A DNA stretch of 33,480 bases from a virus: IMG/VR virus record IMGVR_UViG_3300028591_000144, one strand, 5' to 3'. Under the pieces are notes generated by a model, which saw nothing but the letters and a program-made list of their open reading frames with translations, was not told where the DNA came from and did not search any database. This document shows, piece by piece, positions 1 through 28,656 of this stretch (position 1 is the first letter of the stretch; each line of letters begins with the position of its first letter). A program made the position numbers and the translations under genes.

Positions 1-160
1 GTCCTTTTCTCTCTGTTCTTTTTTTTTTTTTGTTGGGGGGGGGGGGGGGGGGGGAGTTACACCTGAGAGTGCCGCACTACTCTTCTATCGGGAGGATTCA
101 GAGTCTCGGCGCGCAGCCAGAGAGGGCGCCCCGGACAAACGTCCCCGTAGTCTAGTCTGT
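1..160. other. GC-rich terminal segment with T13 (19-31) and G20 (35-54) homopolymers
   Basis: Homopolymer runs and about 60 percent GC read directly. Unlike the rest of the window. Possible contig end or two-colour poly-G artefact, or a genome terminus. Confidence 0.5.
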
Positions 161-200
161 CCCTGCTGGGATGGGTTGGGCCGCAATATTCCGAATTTAA
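158..200 (+). repeat. Module-A G-triplet box copy 1 (CCTGCTGGGATGGGTTGGGCCGCAA)
   Basis: Member of a 12-copy family CNGTGCTGGGWWGGGNTGGGNNGCAA. Confidence 0.7.
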
Positions 201-421
201 CAAAACAAAACATAACGAAAAAACGACAAGCGGAAGTGTATAACATTGTCCAGAACTATTCTTTCCCGAAAGAAAAAGGCATGTCGTGAGAAGCCCCTAA
301 AATAGGGGCTTTTTTTGATATACGAAAAAAAATATTGCTAAAAAATTTTTTTTGATTTATAAAGAAATCACAACAGCAGAGCAAACAAAAAATCTTTCGA
401 CTCTGCAAGAAAGGAAAGAAA

Positions 422-622
422 ATGAAAGCAATGAAAGTAAGAGTATGCGTGCAGGCATATGACCCTGCATGGTATGAGGAAGAAGTTGTCCTTGTGCATG
501 AATACAATGGCATGGACGTCAAAAGCGTCCTGCATGGCATTGAAGAATATCGCCGTGCGCAAGGTGACGGCGAAGGCGGTGTGGTGTTCGTTACCGCCTT
601 CGTAGAAAAGGGGGAAGAATAA
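422..622 (+). CDS. hypothetical small protein (66 aa)
   Basis: ORF track. SD AAAGGAAAG upstream. Follows a module-A leader hairpin gcagag/ctctgc. Confidence 0.55.
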   Translation: MKAMKVRVCVQAYDPAWYEEEVVLVHEYNGMDVKSVLHGIEEYRRAQGDGEGGVVFVTAFVEKGEE

Positions 623-826
623 ATGATAGTATTCTTTGCAATCGCTTTTGCAATAGTGAGCATTGTGTTCGCTATTGTGAGCGTGACAACAGCTACCTTG
701 ACCATTCAGATTGACGGCGAACGCACCGCCGTCTTTTACGGATGGAAAAGTTTCTGCTGGTACCGCAAGAACTGCGGTACAAAGCGGACACGCTACAGGT
801 TAATCAAAATTGAGGGGCTCTTTTGA
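623..826 (+). CDS. hypothetical protein with hydrophobic N-terminus (67 aa)
   Basis: ORF track. Start overlaps previous stop (TAAATG). Followed by terminator. Confidence 0.5.
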   Translation: MIVFFAIAFAIVSIVFAIVSVTTATLTIQIDGERTAVFYGWKSFCWYRKNCGTKRTRYRLIKIEGLF

Positions 827-839
827 GTCCCTCAGAACA

Positions 840-873
840 GACCTCGGAGAGAAAACTCCGAGGTCTTTTTTTT
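840..873 (+). terminator. rho-independent terminator
   Basis: gacctcggag-agaaaa-ctccgaggtc followed by T8. Confidence 0.8.
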
Positions 874-907
874 GCCTTACGATACCCCGACATAGCAAAT
901 CTATTCG

Positions 908-950
908 CCTGTCCCTGCTGGGATGGGTTGGGCCGCAATGCCTGCTGATT
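908..950 (+). repeat. Module-A G-triplet box copy 2
   Basis: gtccctgctgggatgggttgggccgcaatg. Confidence 0.7.
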
Positions 951-1043
951 TCAGTTACAAAAGTATTACGAAAAAAACAAAATCCTGGGCAACAAAAGCA
1001 AGTTGTGACTGTCAATTCCCGAAAGAAAAGAGTATGCCGCCAA

Positions 1044-1069
1044 AAGCCCCTAAAATAGGGGCTTTTTTT
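1044..1069 (+). terminator. module-A internal hairpin agcccct-aaaat-aggggct + T7
   Basis: Perfect 7-bp stem plus T-run, immediately upstream of the module promoter. Equivalent hairpin in every module-A copy. Confidence 0.6.
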
Positions 1070-1087
1070 AATATGTTGAAAAAAATA

Positions 1088-1116
1088 TTGCAAAAAAAAT
1101 TTTTTTGATATAAGTT
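1088..1116 (+). promoter_or_regulatory. module-A promoter TTGCAA-17-TAAGTT
   Basis: atattgcaaaaaaaatttttttgatataagtt. Same ATATTGCAA -35 context as second-half promoters. Hexamers read from sequence. Confidence 0.5.
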
Positions 1117-1206
1117 GTGATTGTCCTCAGCGAGAAACAAAAAAAACGGCACGCACCACCGCAAGGGCGTGAAACTCCGTAGGCTGTAGGACAGGAAGGA
1201 AAAACC
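1117..1206 (+). promoter_or_regulatory. conserved structured 5' leader (nested hairpins gtcctcagc/gctgtaggac and cacgc/gcgtg)
   Basis: Identical about 90-nt leader at 1117-1206, 3352-3442 and 5383-5461. Covarying variants elsewhere. Confidence 0.55.
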
Positions 1207-1599
1207 ATGAAGATCGAGAATTACAATCACTACAGCAGAAAGCAGGTCAACTATGGCCTGTGTGCAGGCCGTCACGATATGCCGGTTGATGAGTGCATCT
1301 TTGAGGATACACTTGATCCGACAGATTTTGACGGAATGACCCGTGTGGCCGCACGGGAATTGAAGCAGTACCGCGGCCGCAATATCCATCTGGTGGTGTA
1401 TGCCACCGGATTGACGGCCGCAATGATTGCGGTCATCAACGTTTGCGCCGCATGGCGCATTGACCTTACGGTCATGCACTATGACCGTGCAACGGGGGGC
1501 TATCTCCCCCAAACGGTCATTGAAAGGCCGTACTGCGTGTACTGCGGGGCTGAGTACCCGCTGAACGCGCAGGAATGCCCGGAGTGTCAGGCCACCTGA
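1207..1599 (+). CDS. hypothetical protein, C-terminal CxxC...CxxC zinc ribbon (130 aa), about 55 percent GC
   Basis: ORF track. SD GGAAGGAAAAACC. Motifs CVYC and CPEC at C-terminus. Confidence 0.65.
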   Translation: MKIENYNHYSRKQVNYGLCAGRHDMPVDECIFEDTLDPTDFDGMTRVAARELKQYRGRNIHLVVYATGLTAAMIAVINVCAAWRIDLTVMHYDRATGGYLPQTVIERPYCVYCGAEYPLNAQECPECQAT

Positions 1600-1610
1600 C
1601 ACTCCACAAA

Positions 1611-1637
1611 GGTAGACGGAACGCCTTAAAGACTCCG
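1611..1637 (+). promoter_or_regulatory. 27-nt intercistronic box B copy 1 (GGTAGACGGAACGCCTTAAAGACTCCG)
   Basis: Exact 27-mer directly after the stop codon and before the next SD. 12 copies in the window. Confidence 0.75.
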
Positions 1638-1662
1638 AAACATTTATATAGGAGGAAGAAAA

Positions 1663-1980
1663 ATGATGATTAAGACTTTCACGGGAGCGATTATCGCTTC
1701 TGTGAGCAGCCAAAATGAATGGGAGCGCAACCGGCTCCCGTTCATCGTGGAGTACCGCACTCAGGGCGTGCGAATTCTTCACGGGGCCGATAGCATGGAG
1801 CTGGCTCTGTACTGGGCTCGCTTCAATGCTGAAGCCCACGCCGCAAATGCGGCACCCGCGGCAACACTGTTCATTTATGAACAGAACCGCGGGAAAGACA
1901 AGCGGTTCAACCGCTGGTTGGTTGGTGCCGTCATGTATGATGGCGAAACGGTCAGCCAGTGGGTCGAGGGTCAGGAATAA
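1663..1980 (+). CDS. hypothetical protein (105 aa)
   Basis: ORF track. SD TAGGAGGAAG. Confidence 0.65.
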   Translation: MMIKTFTGAIIASVSSQNEWERNRLPFIVEYRTQGVRILHGADSMELALYWARFNAEAHAANAAPAATLFIYEQNRGKDKRFNRWLVGAVMYDGETVSQWVEGQE

Positions 1981-2002
1981 CATCCTGACCCTCTTTTTTT
2001 TT
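1965..2002 (+). terminator. rho-independent terminator
   Basis: gagggtcagga-ataaca-tcctgaccctc + T9. Confidence 0.85.
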
Positions 2003-2043
2003 GCCTTACGGCAAACCACGACTCACACAGCAAATCTATTCGC

Positions 2044-2085
2044 CTGCCCCTGCTGGGATGGGTCGGGCCGCAAGGAACGAATTTT
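2044..2085 (+). repeat. Module-A G-triplet box copy 3
   Basis: ctgcccctgctgggatgggtcgggccgcaagg. Confidence 0.7.
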
Positions 2086-2296
2086 ACAAAACAAAAGTAA
2101 CCGAAAAAACACAAAACAAAAGTGACAAAGCCAAGAGAGAAAGAAAAAATCCTGATAGTCGCATGCCACGTGCGCAAACCCCCTGTATTTACTGGACTTT
2201 TCAAGATATACGAAAAAAAATATTGAAAAAAAAATATTTTTGATATATAAAAGAATCACAACAGGCAAAAAGAAAAAACAGAAAGGGGAATGAAAT

Positions 2297-2686
2297 ATGA
2301 CTAACTGGCATGAAGTCCAGCAAGACTGGATAGGATATGAAATCAAAGATACTGATATCCCTATCCATGATTGGTGGGACCACGAAGACAGGACAACATA
2401 CATATATTGTCACGTGGCCCTCGGGACAGTTGTCTTTGTTGCTCCGGACCGTTACGGCAATGAAGACATTGCCACAGTGTTCACAAACACCGGTATAATC
2501 GGGGTTGTGAACGTCAAGACGTACAGGTTCTTGACAATGTACGTCACGTCTCAAAGTAAGCTGTTAGATGCTTACACGAGAGCACGTGGCAAGGGGAATG
2601 AACTCCCATTACCGCAAGAAACTCTTTTAGCGGTAAGAGAGTTATACAAGAATCCTGAGGCTCGAGTTAGATTGGAAATGACCTGA
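2297..2686 (+). CDS. hypothetical protein (129 aa)
   Basis: ORF track. SD AAAGGGGAATGAAAT. Confidence 0.6.
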   Translation: MTNWHEVQQDWIGYEIKDTDIPIHDWWDHEDRTTYIYCHVALGTVVFVAPDRYGNEDIATVFTNTGIIGVVNVKTYRFLTMYVTSQSKLLDAYTRARGKGNELPLPQETLLAVRELYKNPEARVRLEMT

Positions 2687-2696
2687 GCTTCGCCCC

Positions 2697-2718
2697 AAGG
2701 GGACGGGGTAAAGTCCCC
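2697..2718 (+). promoter_or_regulatory. intercistronic hairpin ggggac-GGGGTAAA-gtcccc
   Basis: Stem-loop with the GGGGTAAA loop also found at 4553-4572 and 5839-5858. Confidence 0.45.
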
Positions 2719-2747
2719 ACTAAATAACAAAGAAAGGATATGAAAAC

Positions 2748-2933
2748 ATGGCTGAAAAACCCACCCTGTATTTCGTTATGTGCTTGGAATACAAGCACAA
2801 AGATGGAACCATCACAAAGGATATGACCCTTGCGATGGTCAATGACGAAGAGTTGGCGAACAAGAATGCGCTTCTCTGGCAGAATGAACCGGAGTGCATT
2901 GGCGACATTGTTGTCCGCCCAGTAAAGTCTTAA
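2748..2933 (+). CDS. hypothetical protein (61 aa)
   Basis: ORF track. SD AAAGGAT. Confidence 0.55.
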   Translation: MAEKPTLYFVMCLEYKHKDGTITKDMTLAMVNDEELANKNALLWQNEPECIGDIVVRPVKS

Positions 2934-2941
2934 ACACTGAA

Positions 2942-2968
2942 GGTAGACGGAACGCCTTAAAGACTCCG
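2942..2968 (+). promoter_or_regulatory. box B copy 2
   Basis: Exact 27-mer. Confidence 0.75.
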
Positions 2969-2995
2969 ATACTTTAAAAGAAAGGAGAACGAAAA

Positions 2996-3079
2996 ATGCA
3001 AACTGTTATCGCAATTGCCGCGATTATTATCGCAAGTATCATCTTCTGCATCGCACATCTCTACAACATGATGCAATAA
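2996..3079 (+). CDS. small hydrophobic peptide (27 aa, MQTVIAIAAIIIASIIFCIAHLYNMMQ)
   Basis: SD AAAGGAGAA 8 nt upstream. Single predicted TM helix. Followed by hairpin. Confidence 0.5.
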   Translation: MQTVIAIAAIIIASIIFCIAHLYNMMQ

Positions 3080-3146
3080 GACCCACTGGGCCTCTTGGAA
3101 AGAGAATCCAAGAGGCCCAAAGAAAAACAAAAGTACTATACTTCGA

Positions 3147-3190
3147 TGCGCCGTGCTGGGTAGGGCTGGGTCGCAAATATCGAATTTAAC
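3147..3190 (+). repeat. Module-A G-triplet box copy 4
   Basis: gcgccgtgctgggtagggctgggtcgcaaatatcgaattt. Confidence 0.7.
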
Positions 3191-3442
3191 AAATAACAAA
3201 TAAGCGAAAAAGACAAAAACAAATTAAGCTAATCCAAAAGAGGAAAGAAAATTCCTATAATTAAAATGCTAGGCGCAAAGAGCCCCTATTTATTGGGGTT
3301 TTCAAGATATACGAAAAAAATATTGCAAAAAAAATTTTTTTGATATAAGTTGTAATTGTCCTCAGCAAGAAACAAAAAAACGGCACGCACCACCGCAAGG
3401 GCGTGAAACTCCGTAGGCTGTAGGACAGAAAGGAAGTACACC

Positions 3443-3709
3443 ATGATTACTATTTTAATTTGGCTCTGCAATGTCCTCGATAAGAGCTTACTGGTACACA
3501 ACTCCAATGTATCTGTCATGATCCCGACAAGCATTGGCATTTGTGAGGTTCGTCTGGACGCCTGGGTTGATTCCCTTGGCGCTACGCAAGAGCGCCTTTG
3601 GGTAATCTTTGATTATCTGGACGGGTCCGATGCGGATACCGCCAGCTTCACTAATAGAAATGTTGCAAAAGCATTCATTAGTGAATTACTCGAAATCGCA
3701 AATCACTAA
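3443..3709 (+). CDS. hypothetical protein (88 aa)
   Basis: ORF track. Conserved leader plus SD AAAGGAAG. Confidence 0.6.
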   Translation: MITILIWLCNVLDKSLLVHNSNVSVMIPTSIGICEVRLDAWVDSLGATQERLWVIFDYLDGSDADTASFTNRNVAKAFISELLEIANH

Positions 3710-3769
3710 ACTCAATAACGGGGTTGAACTTCTCTAAGAGGTTCAACCTCCATAAAAAGGAGATGTGAT

Positions 3770-4060
3770 ATGAAATATTTTATCCTCGGCGTCCAAGGTA
3801 ATCCAAAACATGGTATCGCCTATTCTGTATACACTTACCGCCGCGCGATGGAGCCGGCAAAAGCTAAAATTGAATGGGATAAGGTAAAAAATCGCAAAGA
3901 TGGCCGAGTAAAGTGCTATCTTGTTCCTGAAGATAAGATTGATCAATTCTATGAAAAAGTAGCTGAGATTAATCAGCGTATGCATAAAGAGTTAGAAACT
4001 CGTAAACGTGGTATAGAACTTCATAACTACGCTATAATGATGTACAATAATATGACCTGA
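3770..4060 (+). CDS. hypothetical basic protein (96 aa)
   Basis: ORF track. SD AAAGGAGATG. Preceded by intercistronic hairpin ggttgaac/gttcaacc. Confidence 0.65.
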   Translation: MKYFILGVQGNPKHGIAYSVYTYRRAMEPAKAKIEWDKVKNRKDGRVKCYLVPEDKIDQFYEKVAEINQRMHKELETRKRGIELHNYAIMMYNNMT

Positions 4061-4090
4061 GAGAGCACATCCCTCAGGTCATATTCCTTC

Positions 4091-4130
4091 GCACCGTGCT
4101 GGGAAGGGTGGGGTCACAAAACTCCGAATT
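4091..4130 (+). repeat. Module-A G-triplet box copy 5
   Basis: gcaccgtgctgggaagggtggggtcacaaaactccgaatt. Confidence 0.7.
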
Positions 4131-4354
4131 CAATAAAACAAAGATACGGTAAAAATACAAAAACAAAAGTTATTAATCTTTGATATAACTGAAAATTCCT
4201 ATATCTCTTTATATCCTTCTCAAACCCCTTGTATTTACTGGGCTTTTCAAGATCTTAAAAAAAAAATATTGCAAAAAAAATATTTTTAATATAAGTTGAA
4301 ATCGTACTCAGCCACAAACAAAAAAATTGCTGAGACAGAAAGTGAGATTCCAGC

Positions 4355-4540
4355 ATGGTTACTATCTATCTTTTCACCGCAGACACCAAGCAGGTCGGTA
4401 TCTATGAGCACTTTCAGGACGTAGGAAGTGCGTTTGACTTCGTCCGTGTTAAGTTCCTGCGGATGCTTCCCGGAGCTTTTGCCTGGCTCGTTTCTGAGGA
4501 TACTGGCGAGCTCCTCAAGGAAATCGACCTCAAGGCCTAA
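4355..4540 (+). CDS. hypothetical protein (61 aa)
   Basis: ORF track. Weak SD. Leader hairpin actcagc/gctgaga. Confidence 0.45.
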   Translation: MVTIYLFTADTKQVGIYEHFQDVGSAFDFVRVKFLRMLPGAFAWLVSEDTGELLKEIDLKA

Positions 4541-4552
4541 TCCTAAGCCCTG

Positions 4553-4572
4553 CCGGCGGGGTAAAACACCGG
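4553..4572 (+). promoter_or_regulatory. intercistronic hairpin ccgg-CGGGGTAAAACA-ccgg (box P)
   Basis: Same box precedes the paralog at 5898. Confidence 0.45.
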
Positions 4573-4612
4573 CAAAATCTAATAAATATTTTTAAAAAGG
4601 AGTTTAAACATT

Positions 4613-4837
4613 ATGGCAAAACGTAGAGTCTATTTCGAATCCGGCGAAATCGTTGAAGCAACTTGCGGCAAGAGCCAATTCAAGCAGATCATCAAGACCC
4701 ATTCTGAACCTGGCATGCGGATGTGGTTCCGGGACTGCCCTGAGTGGCGTCAAACCTATACGAATTGGAATAAGTGGTTCTTTGGATACTGGAAAAACGA
4801 GGACGGAATCCTCTGCCTCCAGAGATTCAAAAAATAA
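4613..4837 (+). CDS. hypothetical protein (74 aa), paralog of 5898-6122
   Basis: ORF track. SD AAAGGAG. Confidence 0.65.
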   Translation: MAKRRVYFESGEIVEATCGKSQFKQIIKTHSEPGMRMWFRDCPEWRQTYTNWNKWFFGYWKNEDGILCLQRFKK

Positions 4838-4847
4838 CTTAAAGATA

Positions 4848-4874
4848 GGTAGACGGAACGCCTTAAAGACTCCG
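4848..4874 (+). promoter_or_regulatory. box B copy 3
   Basis: Exact 27-mer. Confidence 0.75.
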
Positions 4875-4902
4875 TAATTTTAAAATAAAAAGAGGTGAAA
4901 AT

Positions 4903-5121
4903 ATGACTCTGAAAGAGATGGATCTTATTGCAATAGCAATGGACGATCCTAACTATAAATTTAAAACTGTAGGTACTCCATTAATTTTAAGATACAATAG
5001 CTATGGAGATACTACAAAGGTATATCATACTAATGATATACAAAGTGCAATAAAAGATTTCCGTATGACAACTTACAGTATTCAATATGGTACTCATCGA
5101 GGATATAGAGGGCTTATTTAA
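4903..5121 (+). CDS. hypothetical protein (72 aa), AT-rich
   Basis: ORF track. SD AAGAGGTGA. Confidence 0.6.
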   Translation: MTLKEMDLIAIAMDDPNYKFKTVGTPLILRYNSYGDTTKVYHTNDIQSAIKDFRMTTYSIQYGTHRGYRGLI

Positions 5122-5141
5122 GCCCTCTATTTTCTTCTTTT
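5108..5141 (+). terminator. rho-independent terminator
   Basis: agagggcttatttaagccctct followed by T-rich run. Confidence 0.7.
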
Positions 5142-5167
5142 GGTATAATACTTATATATATTTTTAA

Positions 5168-5212
5168 CGCACAGTGCTGGGTAGGGATGGGTCGCAAATA
5201 TCGAATTTGACA
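5168..5212 (+). repeat. Module-A G-triplet box copy 6
   Basis: cgcacagtgctgggtagggatgggtcgcaaatatcgaattt. Confidence 0.7.
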
Positions 5213-5461
5213 AAATAAAAATAACGCAAAAATACAAAAACAAAACTGATTAAACCAAAAGAAGAAGAAAAAATCCTATAATTTTTGATTAACTTGCATG
5301 AAGCCCCTAAATGCAAGGTTTTTAAAGATTTTTCAAAAAAAATATTGCAAAAAAAATTTTTTTGATATAAGTTGTAATTGTCCTCAGCAAGAAACAAAAA
5401 AAACGGCACGCACCGCAAGGGCGTGAAACTCCGTAGGCTGTAGGATAGAAAGGATTCCACT

Positions 5462-5827
5462 ATGTTGTACTACGCTTTTATTAATCTCTCTGACTCCTGC
5501 GTTATCCGCCTGCCGGATACTTATTCCAGCGTCATTTCCGCTTGCGGGGCTATTAACCGCTTTATTGATGCCAATGACAAGATTCACAGCGCCCTTGTCG
5601 TTAGCAAGACTGATGTGAAAGTCATGGTGGCTATGGACAGTGACGGCGGTCTTCTGATTGATCACATTCCTGCTGAAGAGTGGGAAACCCACTCTGTTGA
5701 AGAGTTCTATGGCGCACAAAAGACCATTCGAAAGGTAGGTGATACAATGTTCGGTTGCTATTATGAGGGCGATGTGTGCATTGCCCTTGTGAATCTCCAG
5801 ACTGGTGAGTATATCCCCGTGGAGTAA
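5462..5827 (+). CDS. hypothetical protein (121 aa)
   Basis: ORF track. Conserved leader. Confidence 0.6.
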   Translation: MLYYAFINLSDSCVIRLPDTYSSVISACGAINRFIDANDKIHSALVVSKTDVKVMVAMDSDGGLLIDHIPAEEWETHSVEEFYGAQKTIRKVGDTMFGCYYEGDVCIALVNLQTGEYIPVE

Positions 5828-5897
5828 TCCACAGCCCTGCCGGTGGGGCAAAACACCGGCACAATATAAAAAAAATTTTTTTGAAAGGAAGCAAAAA

Positions 5898-6122
5898 ATG
5901 AAAAAACGTAGAGTTTATTTCGAAGATGGTGAAATCGTTGAAGTAATGAGCGGGAAAGCTCACTTCAAAAGAGTGGTAAAAAATCATTCTGAACCCGACA
6001 TGCGGATGTGGTTCCGGGACTGCCCTGAGTGACGTCGAGCTCACGCAAACTGCGATAAGTGGCTCTTTGGATACTGGAAAAATGATGATGGAATCCTCTG
6101 CATCCAGAGATTCAAAAAATAA
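5898..6122 (+). pseudogene. paralog of 4613-4837 interrupted by in-frame TGA at 6030-6032
   Basis: The TGA sits at a codon that is TGG (Trp) in the paralog. The downstream 29 codons remain in frame and conserved (KW-FGYWKN-DGILC-QRFKK). Indicates recent nonsense mutation or programmed readthrough. Confidence 0.6.
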
Positions 6123-17425: not shown

Positions 17426-17995
17426 ATGAATACTATTCTTGATTGTACTGTTACCACTCGTTGCCCCTTCTGCGGAAAATCCAATGATGTTAAAGTCAAT
17501 GAGATGGACTATCTTGATTGGCTGGATGGTAAACTGGCGCAGAAAGCATTCCCCTACCTCTCTGCTGATGAGCGTGAGATGCTGATTTCTGGCATCTGCC
17601 CTGCTTGCTGGGATTCTACATTCGGCTCTGATGAAGAGCCTGACCCCGATGAAGTAGACATTCATGGAAATACTTTTGGGGATGATGAAGAAGAAGAAAA
17701 TGAAAAAAATGAAGAAGATTCTGAGATGGAAAAATTGATGTCTGCGCTTACTGCTTACAACATCCCGTATGAAACGACTATTGATTGTACTGGAGAAGGT
17801 CTGCAAGTTTGGTATCCTTCGCGTGATGATAATATTTGTGACGTGATTTGTCATAAATATTCTTATGGCGGATCAGAAGGACTCCTGGAAATGATGGGCC
17901 TTGTCCCTGATGACTGGGGAGATAGCGTACAGGGATATCTGACCGCAGAAGAAGTATTCGGGCGTATTCACGCTAATTACTTTGGCACAGTTTAA
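17426..17995 (+). CDS. zinc-ribbon plus acidic-tail protein (189 aa). N-terminal 85 aa paralogous to 28387-28656
   Basis: ORF track. SD AAAGGAGATA. Motifs CPFCG...CPACWD. D/E-rich middle region. Confidence 0.75.
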   Translation: MNTILDCTVTTRCPFCGKSNDVKVNEMDYLDWLDGKLAQKAFPYLSADEREMLISGICPACWDSTFGSDEEPDPDEVDIHGNTFGDDEEEENEKNEEDSEMEKLMSALTAYNIPYETTIDCTGEGLQVWYPSRDDNICDVICHKYSYGGSEGLLEMMGLVPDDWGDSVQGYLTAEEVFGRIHANYFGTV

Positions 17996-20323: not shown

Positions 20324-20365
20324 GACGCCACCTTTGCGCGCGTCTCTTACGCAAAGGTGGCGTCT
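20324..20365 (+). repeat. hairpin-C family member (near-identical to 19084 copy)
   Basis: gacgccacctttgcgcgc-gtctct-tacgcaaaggtggcgtc. Confidence 0.75.
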
Positions 20366-20423
20366 TTTATCTTTTGAGTATATTGCACAATTTCCAGGCT
20401 ATATTTTTGTATATTTTTATAAT

Positions 20424-20452
20424 TGACTTTTTTCCTATTATACTGTATACTA
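20424..20452 (+). promoter_or_regulatory. sigma70-type promoter TTGACT-17-TATACT
   Basis: Hexamers read from sequence. Confidence 0.75.
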
Positions 20453-20485
20453 TAGACAATCCAAAAGATAAAGGAGAGAAAGACA

Positions 20486-21617: not shown

Positions 21618-21872
21618 ATGATAAAAGAATGGTTTGAATTAAAGAAACCTTATCATTTCGAAACGAATGATATTATTGCATTGCTAAATTTATTTAATAC
21701 TTTTGCTGTGATAGCGTTTGGGCTTATAGCTTCTTGGTTTGGGCTTGCAATTGCTATTATCTGCATCATTGATGACATTATTGAAGTAAGACGCTTTAAT
21801 CTTATGACGCTGCATCTTTCGATTGCTATTCTTAATGCTTATTTTCTTATGACTTTTTATAACATATTATGA
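21618..21872 (+). CDS. two-helix membrane protein (84 aa), tandem paralog 1
   Basis: ORF track. Confidence 0.65.
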   Translation: MIKEWFELKKPYHFETNDIIALLNLFNTFAVIAFGLIASWFGLAIAIICIIDDIIEVRRFNLMTLHLSIAILNAYFLMTFYNIL

Positions 21873-22123
21873 TGAAACAATTTTTTAAAATAGAAAAAAA
21901 ATATACTCCAGAGTGGAATGACTTTCGTAGCTTACTTACAGTAATTAATGTTCTTTTAGTCCTAAAATTTGGATTATCTATTTCATGGATAACTTTTGGA
22001 GTTGCAATTTTAGGAATCTGTAAAGATTTAACTGTAAGTAGACGAATTAATGATTTAATTATGCACTCTGCTAATGCTATTTTAAATGGTTATTTTCTTT
22101 TAATGTTTTATAATATCATATAA
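21869..22123 (+). CDS. two-helix membrane protein (84 aa), tandem paralog 2
   Basis: ORF track. ATGA overlap with upstream gene. Confidence 0.65.
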   Translation: MMKQFFKIEKKYTPEWNDFRSLLTVINVLLVLKFGLSISWITFGVAILGICKDLTVSRRINDLIMHSANAILNGYFLLMFYNII

Positions 22124-22160: not shown

Positions 22161-22200
22161 CACGCCTGCTTCACGCACGTTTCTTACGTGAAGCAGGCGT
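22161..22200 (+). repeat. hairpin-C family member
   Basis: acgcctgcttcacg-cacgtttcttac-gtgaagcaggcgt. Confidence 0.7.
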
Positions 22201-22260
22201 CTTTTACTTTATATATAAATTGCATAATTTCCAGGCTCTTTTTTTGTGTAATATGCCATA

Positions 22261-22289
22261 TTGCAATTTTCCTGATAGTATGTTATATT
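22261..22289 (+). promoter_or_regulatory. sigma70-type promoter TTGCAA-17-TATATT
   Basis: Hexamers read from sequence. Confidence 0.7.
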
Positions 22290-22320
22290 ATATTTAACCA
22301 AGAGAAAGGAAGAAAAAATA

Positions 22321-22943: not shown

Positions 22944-23003
22944 GTTTAAGTTATTGTAAAAAAAGCATAATTTTTTATATTTATTTTTGTATAATTTAAC
23001 ATA

Positions 23004-23032
23004 TTGCATTTTTCCTAATATTATAGTATAAT
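23004..23032 (+). promoter_or_regulatory. sigma70-type promoter TTGCAT-17-TATAAT
   Basis: Hexamers read from sequence. Confidence 0.7.
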
Positions 23033-23064
23033 AAGATCAAAGAATAAAAAAAAGGAGATAAAAA

Positions 23065-25390: not shown

Positions 25391-25669
25391 ATGACTTTTA
25401 TTCTTAATAAGTGCTATGGTGGCTGGTCGATTTCTGATTTTGCTAAGGAACAGCTGGGCCTTGATTCTAACTACCCTGACAGGGATGAAGTAGATGAAAA
25501 GAAACTGGCAGAATTGATTAATGAGTATGGCTCTGAGAAGTGCTCTGGACGTAGTGCCTGGCTTAAAATAGTTGAAATCCCTGATAATGCTACCGATTGG
25601 GACATTGATGAGTATGATGGCATTGAAAGAATCGTCTATGTTATTGATGGGAAACTAAGGTATGCCTAA
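25391..25669 (+). CDS. acidic protein (92 aa)
   Basis: ORF track. SD AAAGGAGATAAAAAAATT. Confidence 0.65.
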   Translation: MTFILNKCYGGWSISDFAKEQLGLDSNYPDRDEVDEKKLAELINEYGSEKCSGRSAWLKIVEIPDNATDWDIDEYDGIERIVYVIDGKLRYA

Positions 25670-25677
25670 TTAAATAT

Positions 25678-25710
25678 AAAGAAGGAAGAAAATATTCTTC
25701 CTTCTTTTTA
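25678..25710 (+). terminator. rho-independent terminator
   Basis: gaaggaagaaaatattcttccttc + TTTTT. Confidence 0.8.
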
Positions 25711-25711
25711 A

Positions 25712-25750
25712 AGCGCTGGGTCTTCGAGTGCTTGCACCCGAAGACTCAGC
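25712..25750 (+). repeat. hairpin-C family member
   Basis: gcgctgggtcttcg-agtgcttgcacc-cgaagactcagcg + TCTTTAAG. Near-identical copy at 27272. Confidence 0.7.
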
Positions 25751-25812
25751 GTCTTTAAGCTTTTTATATAAAATGTACAATTTCCAGGATTATTTTTTGT
25801 ATAATATTACCT

Positions 25813-25841
25813 ATTGCTTTTTTCCTGAAATAGTAGTATAC
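25813..25841 (+). promoter_or_regulatory. sigma70-type promoter TTGCTT-17-TATACT driving a non-coding region
   Basis: Hexamers read from sequence. Confidence 0.6.
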
Positions 25842-25847
25842 TATAAT

Positions 25848-26135
25848 CGTTCCAAGGGAAATGCACTTAATCCTTGAGAACAGTGTGAATGGACAATACA
25901 CTTGACTTCGAACACACTATAATCAAAAGAAGATAGTGTTGACTTTGGGACTTTTACCAGTTTATATTTTTGTTTCAAAAGGCAAACAAAGGGAGAATAA
26001 ACTGGCGCTCGGCAGGCGTTTAGTGCAAAACTGCCTGCCGATGTGTGAAATGCGCTTACCAAAAAAATAGAAAAAAAGATTAAAAAAATTGGAAAAACGC
26101 ACTTAACTTTTGTTTTTAATAATCATATAGAAAGT
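25848..26135 (+). ncRNA. candidate non-coding RNA locus (family 2, copy 1), upstream of tRNA-like gene
   Basis: Own promoter and no credible ORF. Starts ATAATCGTTCCAAGGGAAA. Contains stem-loop ggcaggc...gcctgcc. Homologous start at 27401. Confidence 0.45.
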
Positions 26136-26214
26136 GAGAAGAACCTTTGACAGGCAAAGGTCACTGTTCGAGTCAGTAAAGTGGTCACGATGGGTTCAAC
26201 TCCCATTCTTCTCA
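26136..26214 (+). tRNA. tRNA-like gene, best fit anticodon CGA (Ser). 79 nt, no encoded CCA
   Basis: Cloverleaf folded by hand. Perfect 7-bp acceptor gagaaga/tcttctc. D-arm cttt-gacaggc-aaag. Anticodon loop TTCGAGT (U33, R37). T-arm atggg-TTCAACT-cccat. Variable arm of 11 nt is atypical for Ser. Confidence 0.55.
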
Positions 26215-26230
26215 AAAAACAAAAAGATAC

Positions 26231-26259
26231 TTGATAAATTACCAAAAGTATGGTATAAT
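26231..26259 (+). promoter_or_regulatory. sigma70-type promoter TTGATA-17-TATAAT (TG-extended) with about 125-nt purine/pyrimidine-tract leader
   Basis: Hexamers read from sequence. Leader contains agagagaagagagaa and ttcttctctctctt complementary tracts. Confidence 0.7.
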
Positions 26260-26384
26260 GAATATGTAAGATAAAGAGAGAAGAGAGAAAGGTCTTAATT
26301 AAAAAGTCAAAAAGACGCCGCTGCAATGTTCAGCTGGTTGACAACGTTCTTCTCTCTCTTACAAAAAACAAAGGAGAAACTAAA

Positions 26385-26576
26385 ATGGCTATCGCACATG
26401 TTACTTTTACTTGTTATTACAATTATGAAGTAGAAATTGACGATACTCTTTATGATGAAGACCCCTGGGCGGCTGAAGAGCAAGCTATTGAGGATGCCTA
26501 TGAACAGTATAAAGCTATTAAAAGTCGTCCTGTTGCAGATACTACATACGATGAAGTAGAAGTTGAATTTGAGTAA
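26385..26576 (+). CDS. highly acidic protein (63 aa)
   Basis: ORF track. SD AAAGGAGAAAC. Confidence 0.65.
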   Translation: MAIAHVTFTCYYNYEVEIDDTLYDEDPWAAEEQAIEDAYEQYKAIKSRPVADTTYDEVEVEFE

Positions 26577-26621
26577 ATGACTTCTTTAGTGAAGGATGTA
26601 ATAACTTAAAAAATCTAAAAC

Positions 26622-26700
26622 AATTTTGTCAGAGGGAGAAATAATGAGGCAGTAGTAGAGTAAGACCTCAACAAGGTTTAATAAACGCCCTCTGACAAAA
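26622..26700 (+). other. long stem-loop (13-bp stem ttttgtcagaggg/ccctctgacaaaa, about 51-nt loop)
   Basis: Inverted repeat read from sequence. No T-run on either strand. Confidence 0.5.
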
Positions 26701-26714
26701 AATTTAAAAAGATC

Positions 26715-26743
26715 TTGACAACATTTTAAAGGTATGCTATAAT
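26715..26743 (+). promoter_or_regulatory. sigma70-type promoter TTGACA-17-TATAAT
   Basis: Hexamers read from sequence. Confidence 0.8.
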
Positions 26744-26780
26744 AAAATTACAAGAAAAAAAAGAGAAAAGGAGATAAAAA

Positions 26781-27251
26781 ATGAATAATGAAGTTATTAA
26801 AGCAATGAATAAAAAGTCTCCAAAAGAAAGCGATTTCAAAAAGTGGTGGAAAAAGAACGGTTATAAAGTTAGGCGGATTGTGTTCTTCCCCATATGGGCC
26901 TTTGTGTGGAGCAAAGATAAAATCAAAGCCTATCTCAATTCCCGCACCGAGTGGAGCGAAAGCAAAGCTAATGAAATCCTTAACTACTATGTTCCCCGTT
27001 TTGCTTGTTGGGATAATGAAGATAAAATTTTTTATTTTTTCGATAATGGATACGGATGGTCAATGGATTTCGCTAAAAGATATTTAAAACTTAAAGACCG
27101 TAGATTCTGGAAACTCTATGCCAGTTGGGGCGGCGCTCAAGTTCGTGATTATCTTATCAATAATTTTGAACTTGATGGATTTACAAAAGAAGTCGGCAAT
27201 TGCTATGATGGCTGGACTGAAATTACTTTCAGAATGAAAGCAGAGGAGTAA
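26781..27251 (+). CDS. Trp-rich basic protein (156 aa)
   Basis: ORF track. SD AAAGGAGATAAAAA. Confidence 0.7.
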   Translation: MNNEVIKAMNKKSPKESDFKKWWKKNGYKVRRIVFFPIWAFVWSKDKIKAYLNSRTEWSESKANEILNYYVPRFACWDNEDKIFYFFDNGYGWSMDFAKRYLKLKDRRFWKLYASWGGAQVRDYLINNFELDGFTKEVGNCYDGWTEITFRMKAEE

Positions 27252-27268
27252 AAATCCTCTGCTTTTTT
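27243..27268 (+). terminator. rho-independent terminator
   Basis: gcagagga-gtaaaaat-cctctgc + TTTTTT. Confidence 0.8.
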
Positions 27269-27271
27269 AAA

Positions 27272-27310
27272 GCGCTGGGTCTTCGAGCGCTTGCACCCGA
27301 AGACCCAGCG
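27272..27310 (+). repeat. hairpin-C family member
   Basis: gcgctgggtcttcg-agcgcttgcacc-cgaagacccagcg + TCTTTAAG. Confidence 0.7.
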
Positions 27311-27371
27311 TCTTTAAGTTTTTTATATAAAATGTACAATTTCCAGGATGATTTTTTGTATAATATTACCT

Positions 27372-27400
27372 ATTGCTTTTTTCCTAAAATAGTAGTATAT
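27372..27400 (+). promoter_or_regulatory. sigma70-type promoter TTGCTT-17-TATATT driving a non-coding region
   Basis: Hexamers read from sequence. Confidence 0.6.
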
Positions 27401-27690
27401 TATAATTGTCCCAAGGAAAAGGGAAGTGATATCACCTGAGTAGCAAAAGGACTGGACAGCAAGCTTTCAGTGGTTAGAACTGTCAAGTACAAAAAAATTT
27501 CGAACTGATGGCTTTTAGGAGTATCGTCTTGCCAAGTGACGAGAGATTGTTGGAAAGAAAATAATCTCTAAAGGAATTGGTTGACCTTTAGATTTATGGT
27601 TAAGTAGATATTACTGTGGGTGACAGGTTTTGATTTCCAAGAAGGAAAACGAAAATTGACAGGAACCCTAAAAAATCCAAAAAAATCTAT
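27401..27690 (+). ncRNA. candidate non-coding RNA locus (family 2, copy 2)
   Basis: Own promoter and no ORF. Starts ATAATTGTCCCAAGGAAAAGG. Contains a tRNA D-arm-like fragment TCAGTGGTTAGAACTG but no complete cloverleaf. Confidence 0.4.
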
Positions 27691-27718
27691 TGACAAGCAG
27701 TAATTTATGTGGTATACT
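27690..27718 (+). promoter_or_regulatory. sigma70-type promoter TTGACA-17-TATACT (TG-extended)
   Basis: Hexamers read from sequence. Confidence 0.8.
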
Positions 27719-28250: not shown

Positions 28251-28397
28251 ATGACGCCATACTGGAAATTAAATTTCATTGAAGCCTATAAACTACATTT
28301 ACGAGCAAGCGCTTTATTTAGCGTTCGACCCTCTAACCCAATAACTTTTCTCTTCCGTTGGATTAAAAAAAGAAAGGAAAATAAAGATGAAAACTAA
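28251..28397 (+). CDS. basic small protein (48 aa)
   Basis: SD AAAAGGAGAATAAAAA. Overlaps start of next gene in another frame. Manual ORF. Confidence 0.45.
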   Translation: MTPYWKLNFIEAYKLHLRASALFSVRPSNPITFLFRWIKKRKENKDEN

Positions 28398-28656
28398 TAA
28401 TCATGAAATTACTGTTATTACTGGTTGCCCTTTCTGCGGCCTTATCCATGAAGTTGAGGTCAACGAGATGGATTATCTCGACTGGCAGGACGATGTTCTG
28501 GTTCAGGATGCATTCCCCTATCTGGACGCCAATGAACGTGAGATGCTGATTTCTGGCATCTGCCCTGACTGCTGGGATAAAATGTTTGGCTCTGATGAAG
28601 AGCCTGATCCCGACGAAAGAGACATTCATGGAAATACTTTTGGGGGTGAAAGATAA
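28387..28656 (+). CDS. zinc-ribbon small protein (89 aa), paralog of the N-terminal domain of 17426-17995
   Basis: ORF track. Motifs CPFCG...VNEMDYLDW...EREMLISGICPDCWD shared with 17426. Confidence 0.7.
   Translation: MKTNNHEITVITGCPFCGLIHEVEVNEMDYLDWQDDVLVQDAFPYLDANEREMLISGICPDCWDKMFGSDEEPDPDERDIHGNTFGGER

Follow-up and report, generated by a model that had tools for sequence, protein, structure and literature searches.

We analyzed a 33,480-nucleotide (nt) stretch of viral DNA, the IMG/VR record IMGVR_UViG_3300028591_000144 (here called the window, meaning the whole stretch), with a focus on a tRNA-like element on its plus strand at positions 26135 to 26215. The window carries a run of small, mostly acidic plus-strand open reading frames (ORFs) with sigma-70-type promoters and strong Shine-Dalgarno sites. 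Family matches among these ORFs were few: a GNAT acetyltransferase and some PHROGs with no assigned function. Relatives were found in metagenome assemblies only, on contigs that include ones of 164, 239, and 247 kb; one related record is named bovine metagenome, and one related locus carries a T5orf172 domain. When compared with 50,697 phage records, positions 25650 to 26800 gave no DNA match and a neighboring gene of 156 amino acids (aa) gave no protein match. We interpret the window as the early region of a large uncultured phage whose style of expression is Firmicutes-like. Between positions 25670 and 26384, no plus-strand ORF of at least 50 aa was found, which bears out an earlier description of the site, made from the letters only (the sequence-only reading), as a leader without mRNA. 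The next gene downstream, at 26385 to 26576, encodes 63 aa.

In this ORF-free stretch ARAGORN made its sole tRNA call of the window, a tRNA-Ser(cga) at 26135 to 26215 on the plus strand, and the letters at 26136 to 26214, read directly in the window sequence, agree with the cloverleaf parts described for them. The sequence-only reading had proposed two tRNA finders as a check, and was to be refuted by the failure of both together with the absence of a processed small RNA; ARAGORN calls the element, and the reading is not refuted on these terms. In 10.04 Mb of shuffled sequence (300 shuffles of the window that preserve dinucleotides), ARAGORN made no call; therefore, the call is not due to chance, and the cloverleaf is real, far beyond chance. 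A fortuitous cloverleaf, called falsely by ARAGORN, would fit the empty Rfam gathering-score search described below, but it is refuted both by the shuffles and by five further conserved copies with covarying acceptor pairs, and we consider its probability negligible. Those five copies, in the contigs L008, L010, L011, L012, and L013, form together with the window a set of six independent metagenome assemblies; a further record, L001, is the same phage as the window (99.97% identity).

The whole element comprises U(-1), a 79-nt tRNA body, and one trailing A, as delimited by ARAGORN, by the alignment to the Rfam tRNA model RF00005, by our own covariance model, and by the six copies from which that model was built; the window element scores 112 bits with it. 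The perfect 7-bp acceptor stem of the sequence-only reading was confirmed in the sequence and by ARAGORN, with the 5' strand GAGAAGA at 26136 to 26142 and the 3' strand TCTTCTC at 26207 to 26213, followed by the discriminator A26214; in addition, T26135 is able to form an eighth acceptor pair with A26214. The T arm (26190 to 26206), also described as perfect, is so in the sequence, in ARAGORN, and in Infernal: ATGGG and CCCAT enclose the canonical T-loop TTCAACT, of the U54-U55-C56-R57-A58 type, with G53-C61 closing the 5-bp stem. The D arm (CCTTTG, ACAGG, and CAAAGG at 26144 to 26160) carries GG in its small loop and is invariant in all six copies; its stem measures 4 bp in the ARAGORN fold and 6 to 7 bp around a 5-nt loop in the minimum-free-energy (MFE) folds. 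The acceptor stem and the D arm are joined in the ARAGORN drawing by a single base, A26143, where canonical tRNAs have U8 and N9. The MFE folds likewise leave A26143 as the only connector and pair it with U26161, while the Infernal alignment reads two bases, A8 and C9. The anticodon-type arm occupies 26162 to 26183 and its 7-nt loop, TTCGAGT at 26167 to 26173, has U33 and a purine at position 37 and places CGA at 26169 to 26171, so that the loop and the triplet reported before were found as described and agree with the tRNA-Ser(cga) label given by ARAGORN. The CCA end is not encoded; AAAAA follows A26214 directly.

That the element folds as a cloverleaf was thus upheld by ARAGORN and the shuffles. 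The word canonical, which had also been applied to it, was too generous. ARAGORN draws the acceptor stem with 8 bp and the anticodon stem with 6 bp, the latter with a C.A mismatch; it leaves a single connector base, has no base 26, and shows a variable region of 10 nt in which no stem is feasible. Neither U8 nor a second connector base is present in this drawing, and a long D stem is an option. An Rfam search at gathering scores gave no match in the whole window or in the five other copies. When RF00005 was aligned to 101 nt alone, it covered the element end to end (26136 to 26214) with 25.0 bits, under its cut-off of 29 bits. Two other models matched less well still: RF00023 (tmRNA) recognized the T arm only, with 12.5 bits against a cut-off of 47, and RF00233 (the tymovirus-type 3' tRNA-like structure of plant viruses) reached 12.8 to 13.6 bits against 40.

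The sequence-only reading had explained the region behind the anticodon-type loop as a variable arm that is short for a class-II tRNA. Our analysis points to a different arrangement, in which the 3' strand of the anticodon stem holds a 5-nt insertion, GTAAA at 26176 to 26180, and is followed by an ordinary variable loop of class-I length, TCACG at 26185 to 26189, as placed by the Infernal RF00005 alignment and by ARAGORN on a deletion variant; therefore, the short class-II arm is a mis-parse. RNAalifold, single-sequence folding by RNAfold, and the RF00005 alignment of Infernal alike pair 26162 to 26164 with GTG at 26181 to 26183, so that the arm reads CACTG (26162 to 26166), the loop, CA (26174 to 26175), and GTG around the looped-out bases. 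In every copy these pairs fold 3 to 9 kcal/mol better than those of ARAGORN, to whose anticodon-stem pairs thermodynamic folding assigns a pairing probability of no more than 0.14. With 26176 to 26180 looped out, the arm becomes CACUG-UUCGAGU-CA^GUG, a perfect 5-bp stem (6 bp counting a U.G pair), in place of the uninterrupted 5-bp stem of an ordinary tRNA, and behind it lies UCACG.

The comparison of the six copies supports the same arrangement. The insertion reads [G/A][T/C][A/C]AA among them, and its alignment columns 42 to 44 (26176 to 26178) are the only variable positions outside the acceptor stem. In the register drawn by ARAGORN these columns break anticodon-stem pairs, leaving that helix paired in 69% of cells; over the whole fold, 99.2% of cells are paired in the bulge model versus 92.0% in the ARAGORN fold. 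Upon in silico deletion of 26176 to 26180, ARAGORN called all six copies, compared with three before the deletion, and drew a fully paired 6-bp anticodon stem with a 5-nt variable loop. The deletion also made the anticodon arms identical in all six copies and gave, as the minimum-energy fold, a clean 76-nt cloverleaf of class-I shape. These folding models indicate that the element is a tRNA fold with an insertion of constant length and free sequence in the 3' strand of its anticodon stem. A kink-turn or a variable-arm stem was also considered for the inserted bases, and the sequence does not permit either. The bulge-deleted sequence was compared with the 50,697 phage records as well, and only chance-level short matches were obtained, with no similar annotated tRNA among them.

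The copies were reached by two routes. The 63-aa gene downstream of the element has 64 homologues, whose contigs show a mosaic region that is mostly without the element; one of them, L008, which is a 247-kb contig, carries the element immediately upstream of the 63-aa gene. The other four copies, L010 to L013, came from a metagenome collection by an exact 24-mer search, and since the 24-mer corresponds to columns 49 to 72, the invariance of the T arm in these four is partly forced by the search. The five copies are 94 to 99% identical, and the DNA next to them is 38 to 79% identical. Between the window and L008, identity is 97.5% in the element, 78.6% in the 63-aa gene (61% at third codon positions), and 45 to 52% in the flanks. 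Mean pairwise identity over the six copies is 96.4% in the element and falls abruptly at its borders: it is already 61% in the 17-nt promoter spacer, 20 to 35 nt upstream, and 38% further upstream. Such sharp borders favor constraint at the level of the RNA over recent transfer of a larger block.

Only 7 of the 81 columns vary among the six copies, with no insertions or deletions, and the D loop, the 7-nt anticodon-type loop, and the variable loop are invariant. Four of the seven variable columns form two acceptor pairs, and the other three are the consecutive columns 42 to 44. At pair 4-69 the window has A-U, three copies (L008, L010, and L011) have G.U, and two (L012 and L013) have G-C; at pair 3-70, L011 has A.C, L012 has A-U, and the remaining four have G-C. 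The 7-bp acceptor stem is thereby paired in 97.6% of cells, with compensatory change at 3-70 and 4-69, although the numbers are small. When the seven variable columns were placed at random, leaving out the columns fixed by the 24-mer search, two doubly variable pairs arose with P ~0.009, and with P ~0.001 if no pair was also allowed to change on one side only, in a test that was devised after the data had been seen. The covariation in the acceptor stem is suggestive and not proven.

A pattern of this kind also bears on whether the element is a decaying tRNA pseudogene, or the passenger of a recently spread promoter cassette, in which case the similarity of the copies would reflect transfer and not selection. 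In favor of this, the anticodon-stem insertion has the look of a disabling lesion, three of the six copies escape ARAGORN, and the window promoter is damaged, as described below. Moreover, the element is optional: most related loci have no copy beside the 63-aa gene, and a scan of about 160 kb of related DNA (146 kb and 13.5 kb) with our covariance model yielded neither additional nor diverged copies. Against decay or passive spread stand the steep fall of identity at the element borders, down to 61% in the promoter spacer, the restriction of substitutions to the insertion and to pair-preserving changes of the acceptor stem, the lack of any insertion or deletion between copies, and the near-consensus promoters that five copies keep at a fixed distance of 12 nt. 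We regard decay or passive spread as improbable, the most so of the explanations still to be weighed.

Searches outside the copy set were negative. No copy was found in IMG/VR with five sequence patterns taken from the element; the single match, a 12-mer shared with the unrelated contig L023, is due to chance. The two loci recovered as relatives of the 156-aa neighbor gene (L002 and L003) lack the element. In GTDB, with one genome per species, two element patterns gave no match, and therefore we saw no sign of a host tRNA ancestor or of a prophage copy. An integration (att) site was rejected as an explanation on other grounds, namely, that no integrase was seen, that the contexts are varied and nonintegrative, and that the pattern of change is one at the RNA level. 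An antisense role of the loop was dismissed too, as no complementary sense-strand site of at least 8 nt occurs in the window or the other loci besides the element itself. In every copy, two reading frames run through the 81 nt without a stop codon, but a protein-coding reading was discarded, there being no start codon or ribosome-binding site; the unrelated flanks and the base-pair-preserving substitutions also oppose it.

Next, we examined how the element is placed among promoters and genes. In L008 and L010 to L013, a near-consensus sigma-70 promoter ends exactly 12 nt before U(-1), with a -35 box of TTGACA, TTGACT, TTGCTT, TTGCAA, or TTGTTT, a spacer of about 17 nt, and TATAAT, mostly with an upstream TG; this distance predicts a leader of 5 to 6 nt. 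Downstream, an A-rich run follows the element. Behind this run, four of the six copies have a strong promoter; L011, and for the most part L008, have no good promoter there and continue with the ribosome-binding site of the following gene. That gene is the 63-aa gene in three copies (window, L008, and L013) and one of three unrelated genes in L010, L011, and L012. With a promoter of its own and differing next genes, the element is a self-contained optional cassette.

The window departs from this arrangement. Compared with the intact promoters of L008 and L010 to L013, positions 26103 to 26131 hold a damaged remnant of the element's own plus-strand promoter, in which TTGTTT (26110 to 26115) stands merely 10 nt from TATAGA (26126 to 26131); a hybrid TTAACT-17-TATAGA would place the transcription start inside the element. 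Upstream of the remnant, a 271-nt ORF-free block (25837 to 26107, plus strand) is fused to the element in the window only. Its equivalents, 92 to 94% identical, lie in L004 (2337 to 2607), L005 (2766 to 3036), and L030 (277 to 547), where they precede a promoter and a 101-aa gene, and the homology to them stops at the -35 box of the remnant. This block contains a hairpin (26006 to 26045) with two compensatory changes in L030, and a strong ribosome-binding site (AAAGGGAGAATAAA) followed by CTG, not ATG; it is probably a structured leader or a small RNA in its own right. An upstream plus-strand promoter, TTGCTT-17-TATACT, is present at 25814 to 25842, and L004 has TTGACT-17-TATACT at the same position. 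A terminator scan of the window showed no plus-strand terminator between this promoter and the element, so that the window copy would probably be transcribed by read-through from it, across the 271-nt block.

The embedding in a 530-nt leader, on which the sequence-only reading had placed weight, therefore holds for the window and not for the element, which stands alone in five other contigs behind a strong promoter of its own 12 nt upstream. By sequence comparison, the leader is a window-specific fusion of a terminator, one copy of a repeated 157-nt promoter module, and the 271-nt block. The module consists of a hairpin (GCGCTGGGTCTTCGAG.GCTTGCACCCGAAGAC.CAGCG) followed by promoter-like boxes and occurs at 25705 to 25861 and at 27264 to 27420 (94% identical), with about six weaker copies (74 to 79%) at 20360 to 20454, 22197 to 22292, 22945 to 23033, 30246 to 30363, 31827 to 31953, and 32875 to 32970; it may be a recombination substrate that shuffles the cassettes of the region. 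Behind its second copy, positions 27421 to 27700 form another ORF-free stretch of about 280 nt, which could be another noncoding transcript; neither ARAGORN nor Rfam reports anything in it, and none of the fetched loci contains a similar sequence.

On the other side of the element, an A-rich run (26215 to 26230) leads to the next plus-strand promoter, TTGATA-17-TATAAT with TG at 26231 to 26259 (11 of 12 matches in the scan), which would drive the 63-aa gene. In L004 the equivalent of this promoter precedes the 63-aa gene, and the element is absent. A start motif, TATAAT-AAATACAG, is present before genes in L004 and L012 and was not found in the window's own promoters. The 5' untranslated region of the 63-aa gene contains a stem-closed element at 26270 to 26360 (AGAGAGAAGAGAGAA / TTCTTCTCTCTCT), which has the GAGAAGA/TCTTCTC motif of the acceptor stem and is absent from L004, L008, and L013. 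Just upstream of the promoter that follows, a perfect 13-bp inverted repeat (TTTTGTCAGAGGG / CCCTCTGACAAAA) lies at 26624 to 26700.

This organization can be used to evaluate whether the element serves only as a processing or stabilizing signal: its tRNA shape would recruit RNase P and RNase Z, whose cuts in early transcripts would release or protect the mRNA downstream, and the small RNA as such would have no further role. Such a function would suit the absence of a terminator after the element in the window (same scan), the co-transcription with the next gene in L011 and largely in L008, and the position of the window element at the 3' end of a long leader. However, the strong promoter after the element in four of the six copies makes a processing site unnecessary there, and different copies are followed by different genes. 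The acceptor/T-arm helix is all that RNase P and RNase Z require, and processing alone, which the sequence-only reading had offered as an alternative, would leave the invariance of the D loop, the anticodon-type loop, and the variable loop unexplained. We therefore hold a role confined to processing to be improbable, if slightly less so than decay. For priming, the other use suggested at that time, no evidence was found.

The most probable alternative is that the element, despite its bulged anticodon stem and compact core, decodes as a true tRNA: carrying serine or some other amino acid, it would read UCG codons on the ribosome and may replace a host tRNA-Ser(CGA) destroyed by a defense nuclease. 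Local hallmarks of tRNAs are present and invariant (U33, the purine at 37, UUCAACU, G53-C61, and the GG of the D loop, along with the covarying 7-bp acceptor stem), and the anticodon stem is perfect once the insertion is looped out. The sequence-only reading had called the serine identity tentative, and this doubt was justified. The serine-family triplet CGA is invariant at 26169 to 26171; the anticodon, however, is not an identity element for seryl-tRNA synthetase (SerRS). The element has no long variable arm with a stem, and its discriminator is A26214 in all six copies, not G73. G3.U70 is also absent, and we know of no synthetase identity set that fits a CGA anticodon on a class-I body. Across 41 window genes, UCG accounts for 6 of 169 serine codons, or 1.6 per 1,000 codons, and is the rarest serine codon, for which reason codon supplementation was rejected. 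A long variable arm and G73 are the marks used by bacterial SerRS (PMC5389517), and because these marks are missing and UCG is the phage's rarest serine codon, the element seems, with lower certainty, not to be a routine serine decoder. The low pairing probability of the 7-nt-loop hairpin in the ARAGORN register also speaks against decoding, as do the scores under the cut-off for both RF00005 and RF01852 (tRNA-Sec). The latter model gave 24.3 bits in L013 against a cut-off of 47, just above the generic tRNA model, and is not listed for the window copy.

Several known RNAs were compared with the element to assess these irregularities. Ordinary phage tRNAs (RF00005) share with it the 7-bp acceptor stem, the 5-bp T stem, the canonical T-loop, the GG, U33, R37, a promoter of their own, and an unencoded CCA, which is common in Firmicutes-type tRNA genes. 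They differ from it in that the element has a 5-nt stem insertion, A8, the option of a 6- to 7-bp D stem, and no synthetase identity set. Closer in architecture are tRNAs with compact cores. The tRNA-Pyl of Methanomethylophilus alvus and Methanomassiliicoccus is functional with an anticodon stem that contains small loops or unpaired bases, on its 3' side in the M. alvus type, and with 0 to 1 connector bases, and mammalian mitochondrial tRNA-Ser(UCN) has a compact core, keeps G18/G19 and T-Psi-C, and reads UCN codons (PMC7609411). That these tRNAs work with similar irregularities favors decoding. The element likewise combines one connector base, a 5-nt D loop on a 6-bp stem, and, with the bulge looped out, U.G plus five Watson-Crick anticodon pairs. 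Unlike tRNA-Pyl, it has a variable loop of 5 nt (TCACG) versus 3, the anticodon CGA versus CUA, and A73 versus G73; it also has the 5-nt bulge and a bacterial-phage setting, in which neither a PylRS nor a mitochondrial SerRS is available.

Allo-tRNAs and tRNA-Sec-like tRNAs, some of which occur in phages and in bovine rumen bacteria (PMC5389517), resemble the element in the possible longer acceptor stem, the long D stem with a small loop, and the 6-bp anticodon stem. They differ in that the element is without a long variable arm and has A73 versus G73/U73. The acceptor/T branch is 8/4 or 9/3 in allo-tRNAs and 8/5 or 9/4 in tRNA-Sec (PMC5389517); in the element, unpaired U-1 and A73 would give 7/5, and their pairing would give 8/5 (ARAGORN) or 9/4 (RF01852 alignment). 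Some members with stem-destabilizing changes are inactive in translation, and the inactive allo-tRNA(UAU) group has been proposed to act as regulatory RNAs (PMC5389517).

A further comparison concerns tRNAs under attack by host nucleases. VapC-type toxins cleave tRNA-Ser(NGA) at the anticodon, tRNA-Ser(CGA) being among their targets, and phage tRNAs escape anticodon nucleases (PMC10264068, PMC11555353); a bacterial Schlafen nuclease cuts within the anticodon stem (PMC13056530). Phages that carry resistant tRNAs against such nucleases give the decoding alternative a plausible purpose (PMC10264068, PMC11555353). Nuclease-evading phage tRNAs are, like the element, phage-borne and different from those of the host in the anticodon region; theirs are loop-base changes in canonical, charged tRNAs, whereas the element has a 5-nt stem bulge and its charging is doubtful. 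With both sides considered, we judge a true decoding tRNA unlikely. Outside decoding, the tRNA-Other of Bacillus cereus, a chromosomal RNA charged by LysRS, is also a tRNA-shaped and separately expressed small RNA whose role probably lies outside ordinary decoding, though it has no sequence relationship to the element. Bacillus cereus tRNA-Other is mentioned in PMC5389517. As judged from its sequence, the element fits none of the families considered, though it is tRNA-like in shape and probably in maturation, and its 5-nt anticodon-stem insertion appears to have no described counterpart among the bacterial or phage tRNAs of the compared literature.

Overall, the reading that we favor, and hold to be rather probable, is that the element is a functional and independently transcribed tRNA-derived RNA gene of about 80 nt, an optional early-region cassette of uncultured large phages that yields a mimic or special tRNA. 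Following established tRNA biology, host RNA polymerase would transcribe it early in infection, RNase P would trim the 5- to 6-nt leader, an RNase Z-type enzyme would cut after A73, because CCA is not encoded, and a host enzyme would add CCA. The invariant anticodon-type loop on its bulged stem would then engage or escape a host factor that binds tRNAs, for which an anticodon-arm-directed defense nuclease is our best single guess. A tRNA mimic or a structurally altered, nuclease-evading special tRNA seems more likely than a routine decoder. More specifically, the obligatory 5-nt bulge might make the RNA a decoy for an anticodon-arm nuclease or a cleavage-proof stand-in for the targeted tRNA, a proposal that we advance tentatively and with clear doubt. 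If true, it would be an undescribed structural route against tRNA-directed immunity, by stem insertion as opposed to point changes in the loop.

Several points weigh against the favored reading. The mimic or antidefense role is a conjecture, and the limited flanks showed no gene for a nuclease, a ligase, or a synthetase. Decoding is still conceivable, since tRNAs with broken anticodon stems can work in translation. The copies number only six and are very similar to each other, the exact 24-mer match would miss more diverged members, and the high identity could partly reflect recent cassette exchange between phages. The shuffle control of the covariation tool is not significant, as about 105 of 500 shuffles reach the observed score, and the D, T, and anticodon-arm helices carry no covariation support because they never vary. 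Finally, the window's own copy has a damaged promoter.

It is debated why phages carry tRNAs; according to a recent view, many of these tRNAs counter the tRNA-destroying nucleases of the host. With almost all of its bases fixed, an early promoter of its own, and a 5-nt bulge of free sequence, the element would offer a compact test case, either of a bulged anticodon stem that is compatible with bacterial charging and decoding or of phage mimics that do not decode. It also serves as a warning for annotation, as ARAGORN labels tRNA-Ser(CGA) in half of a set of near-identical copies and covariance models miss the element; partial calls and misses of this kind imply that such genes are mis-annotated and under-counted in phage metagenomes.

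Other features were observed in the window and in related contigs. Two paralogous genes at 17426 to 17995 and 28387 to 28656 have in common an N-terminal cysteine-rich domain (phrog_20898), with 79% DNA identity over about 285 nt, and tandem overlapping 84-aa paralogues at 21618 to 21872 and 21869 to 22123 look like small membrane proteins. Positions 1 to 6000 of the window have a G+C content of 0.39 to 0.48, compared with about 0.30 to 0.35 further right, and contain a DNA motif of about 70 nt at no fewer than five sites, seen as a recurring minus-frame peptide (...FFLFLAEDNYNLYQKNFFCNIFF...); this motif is probably a different promoter family. In four related phages without the tRNA-like element, genes with a MazE-antitoxin domain lie about 0.6 to 0.8 kb from the 63-aa gene (2024 to 2305 in L014; 1962 to 2243 in L020, L021, and L022). 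In L023 (IMGVR_UViG_3300006292_000154), the region from about 585 to 900 contains at least three consecutive irregular tRNA-like sequences, none of which is called by ARAGORN, with good T arms and long acceptor-like stems; this series resembles the polycistrons of irregular tRNAs described in PMC5389517.

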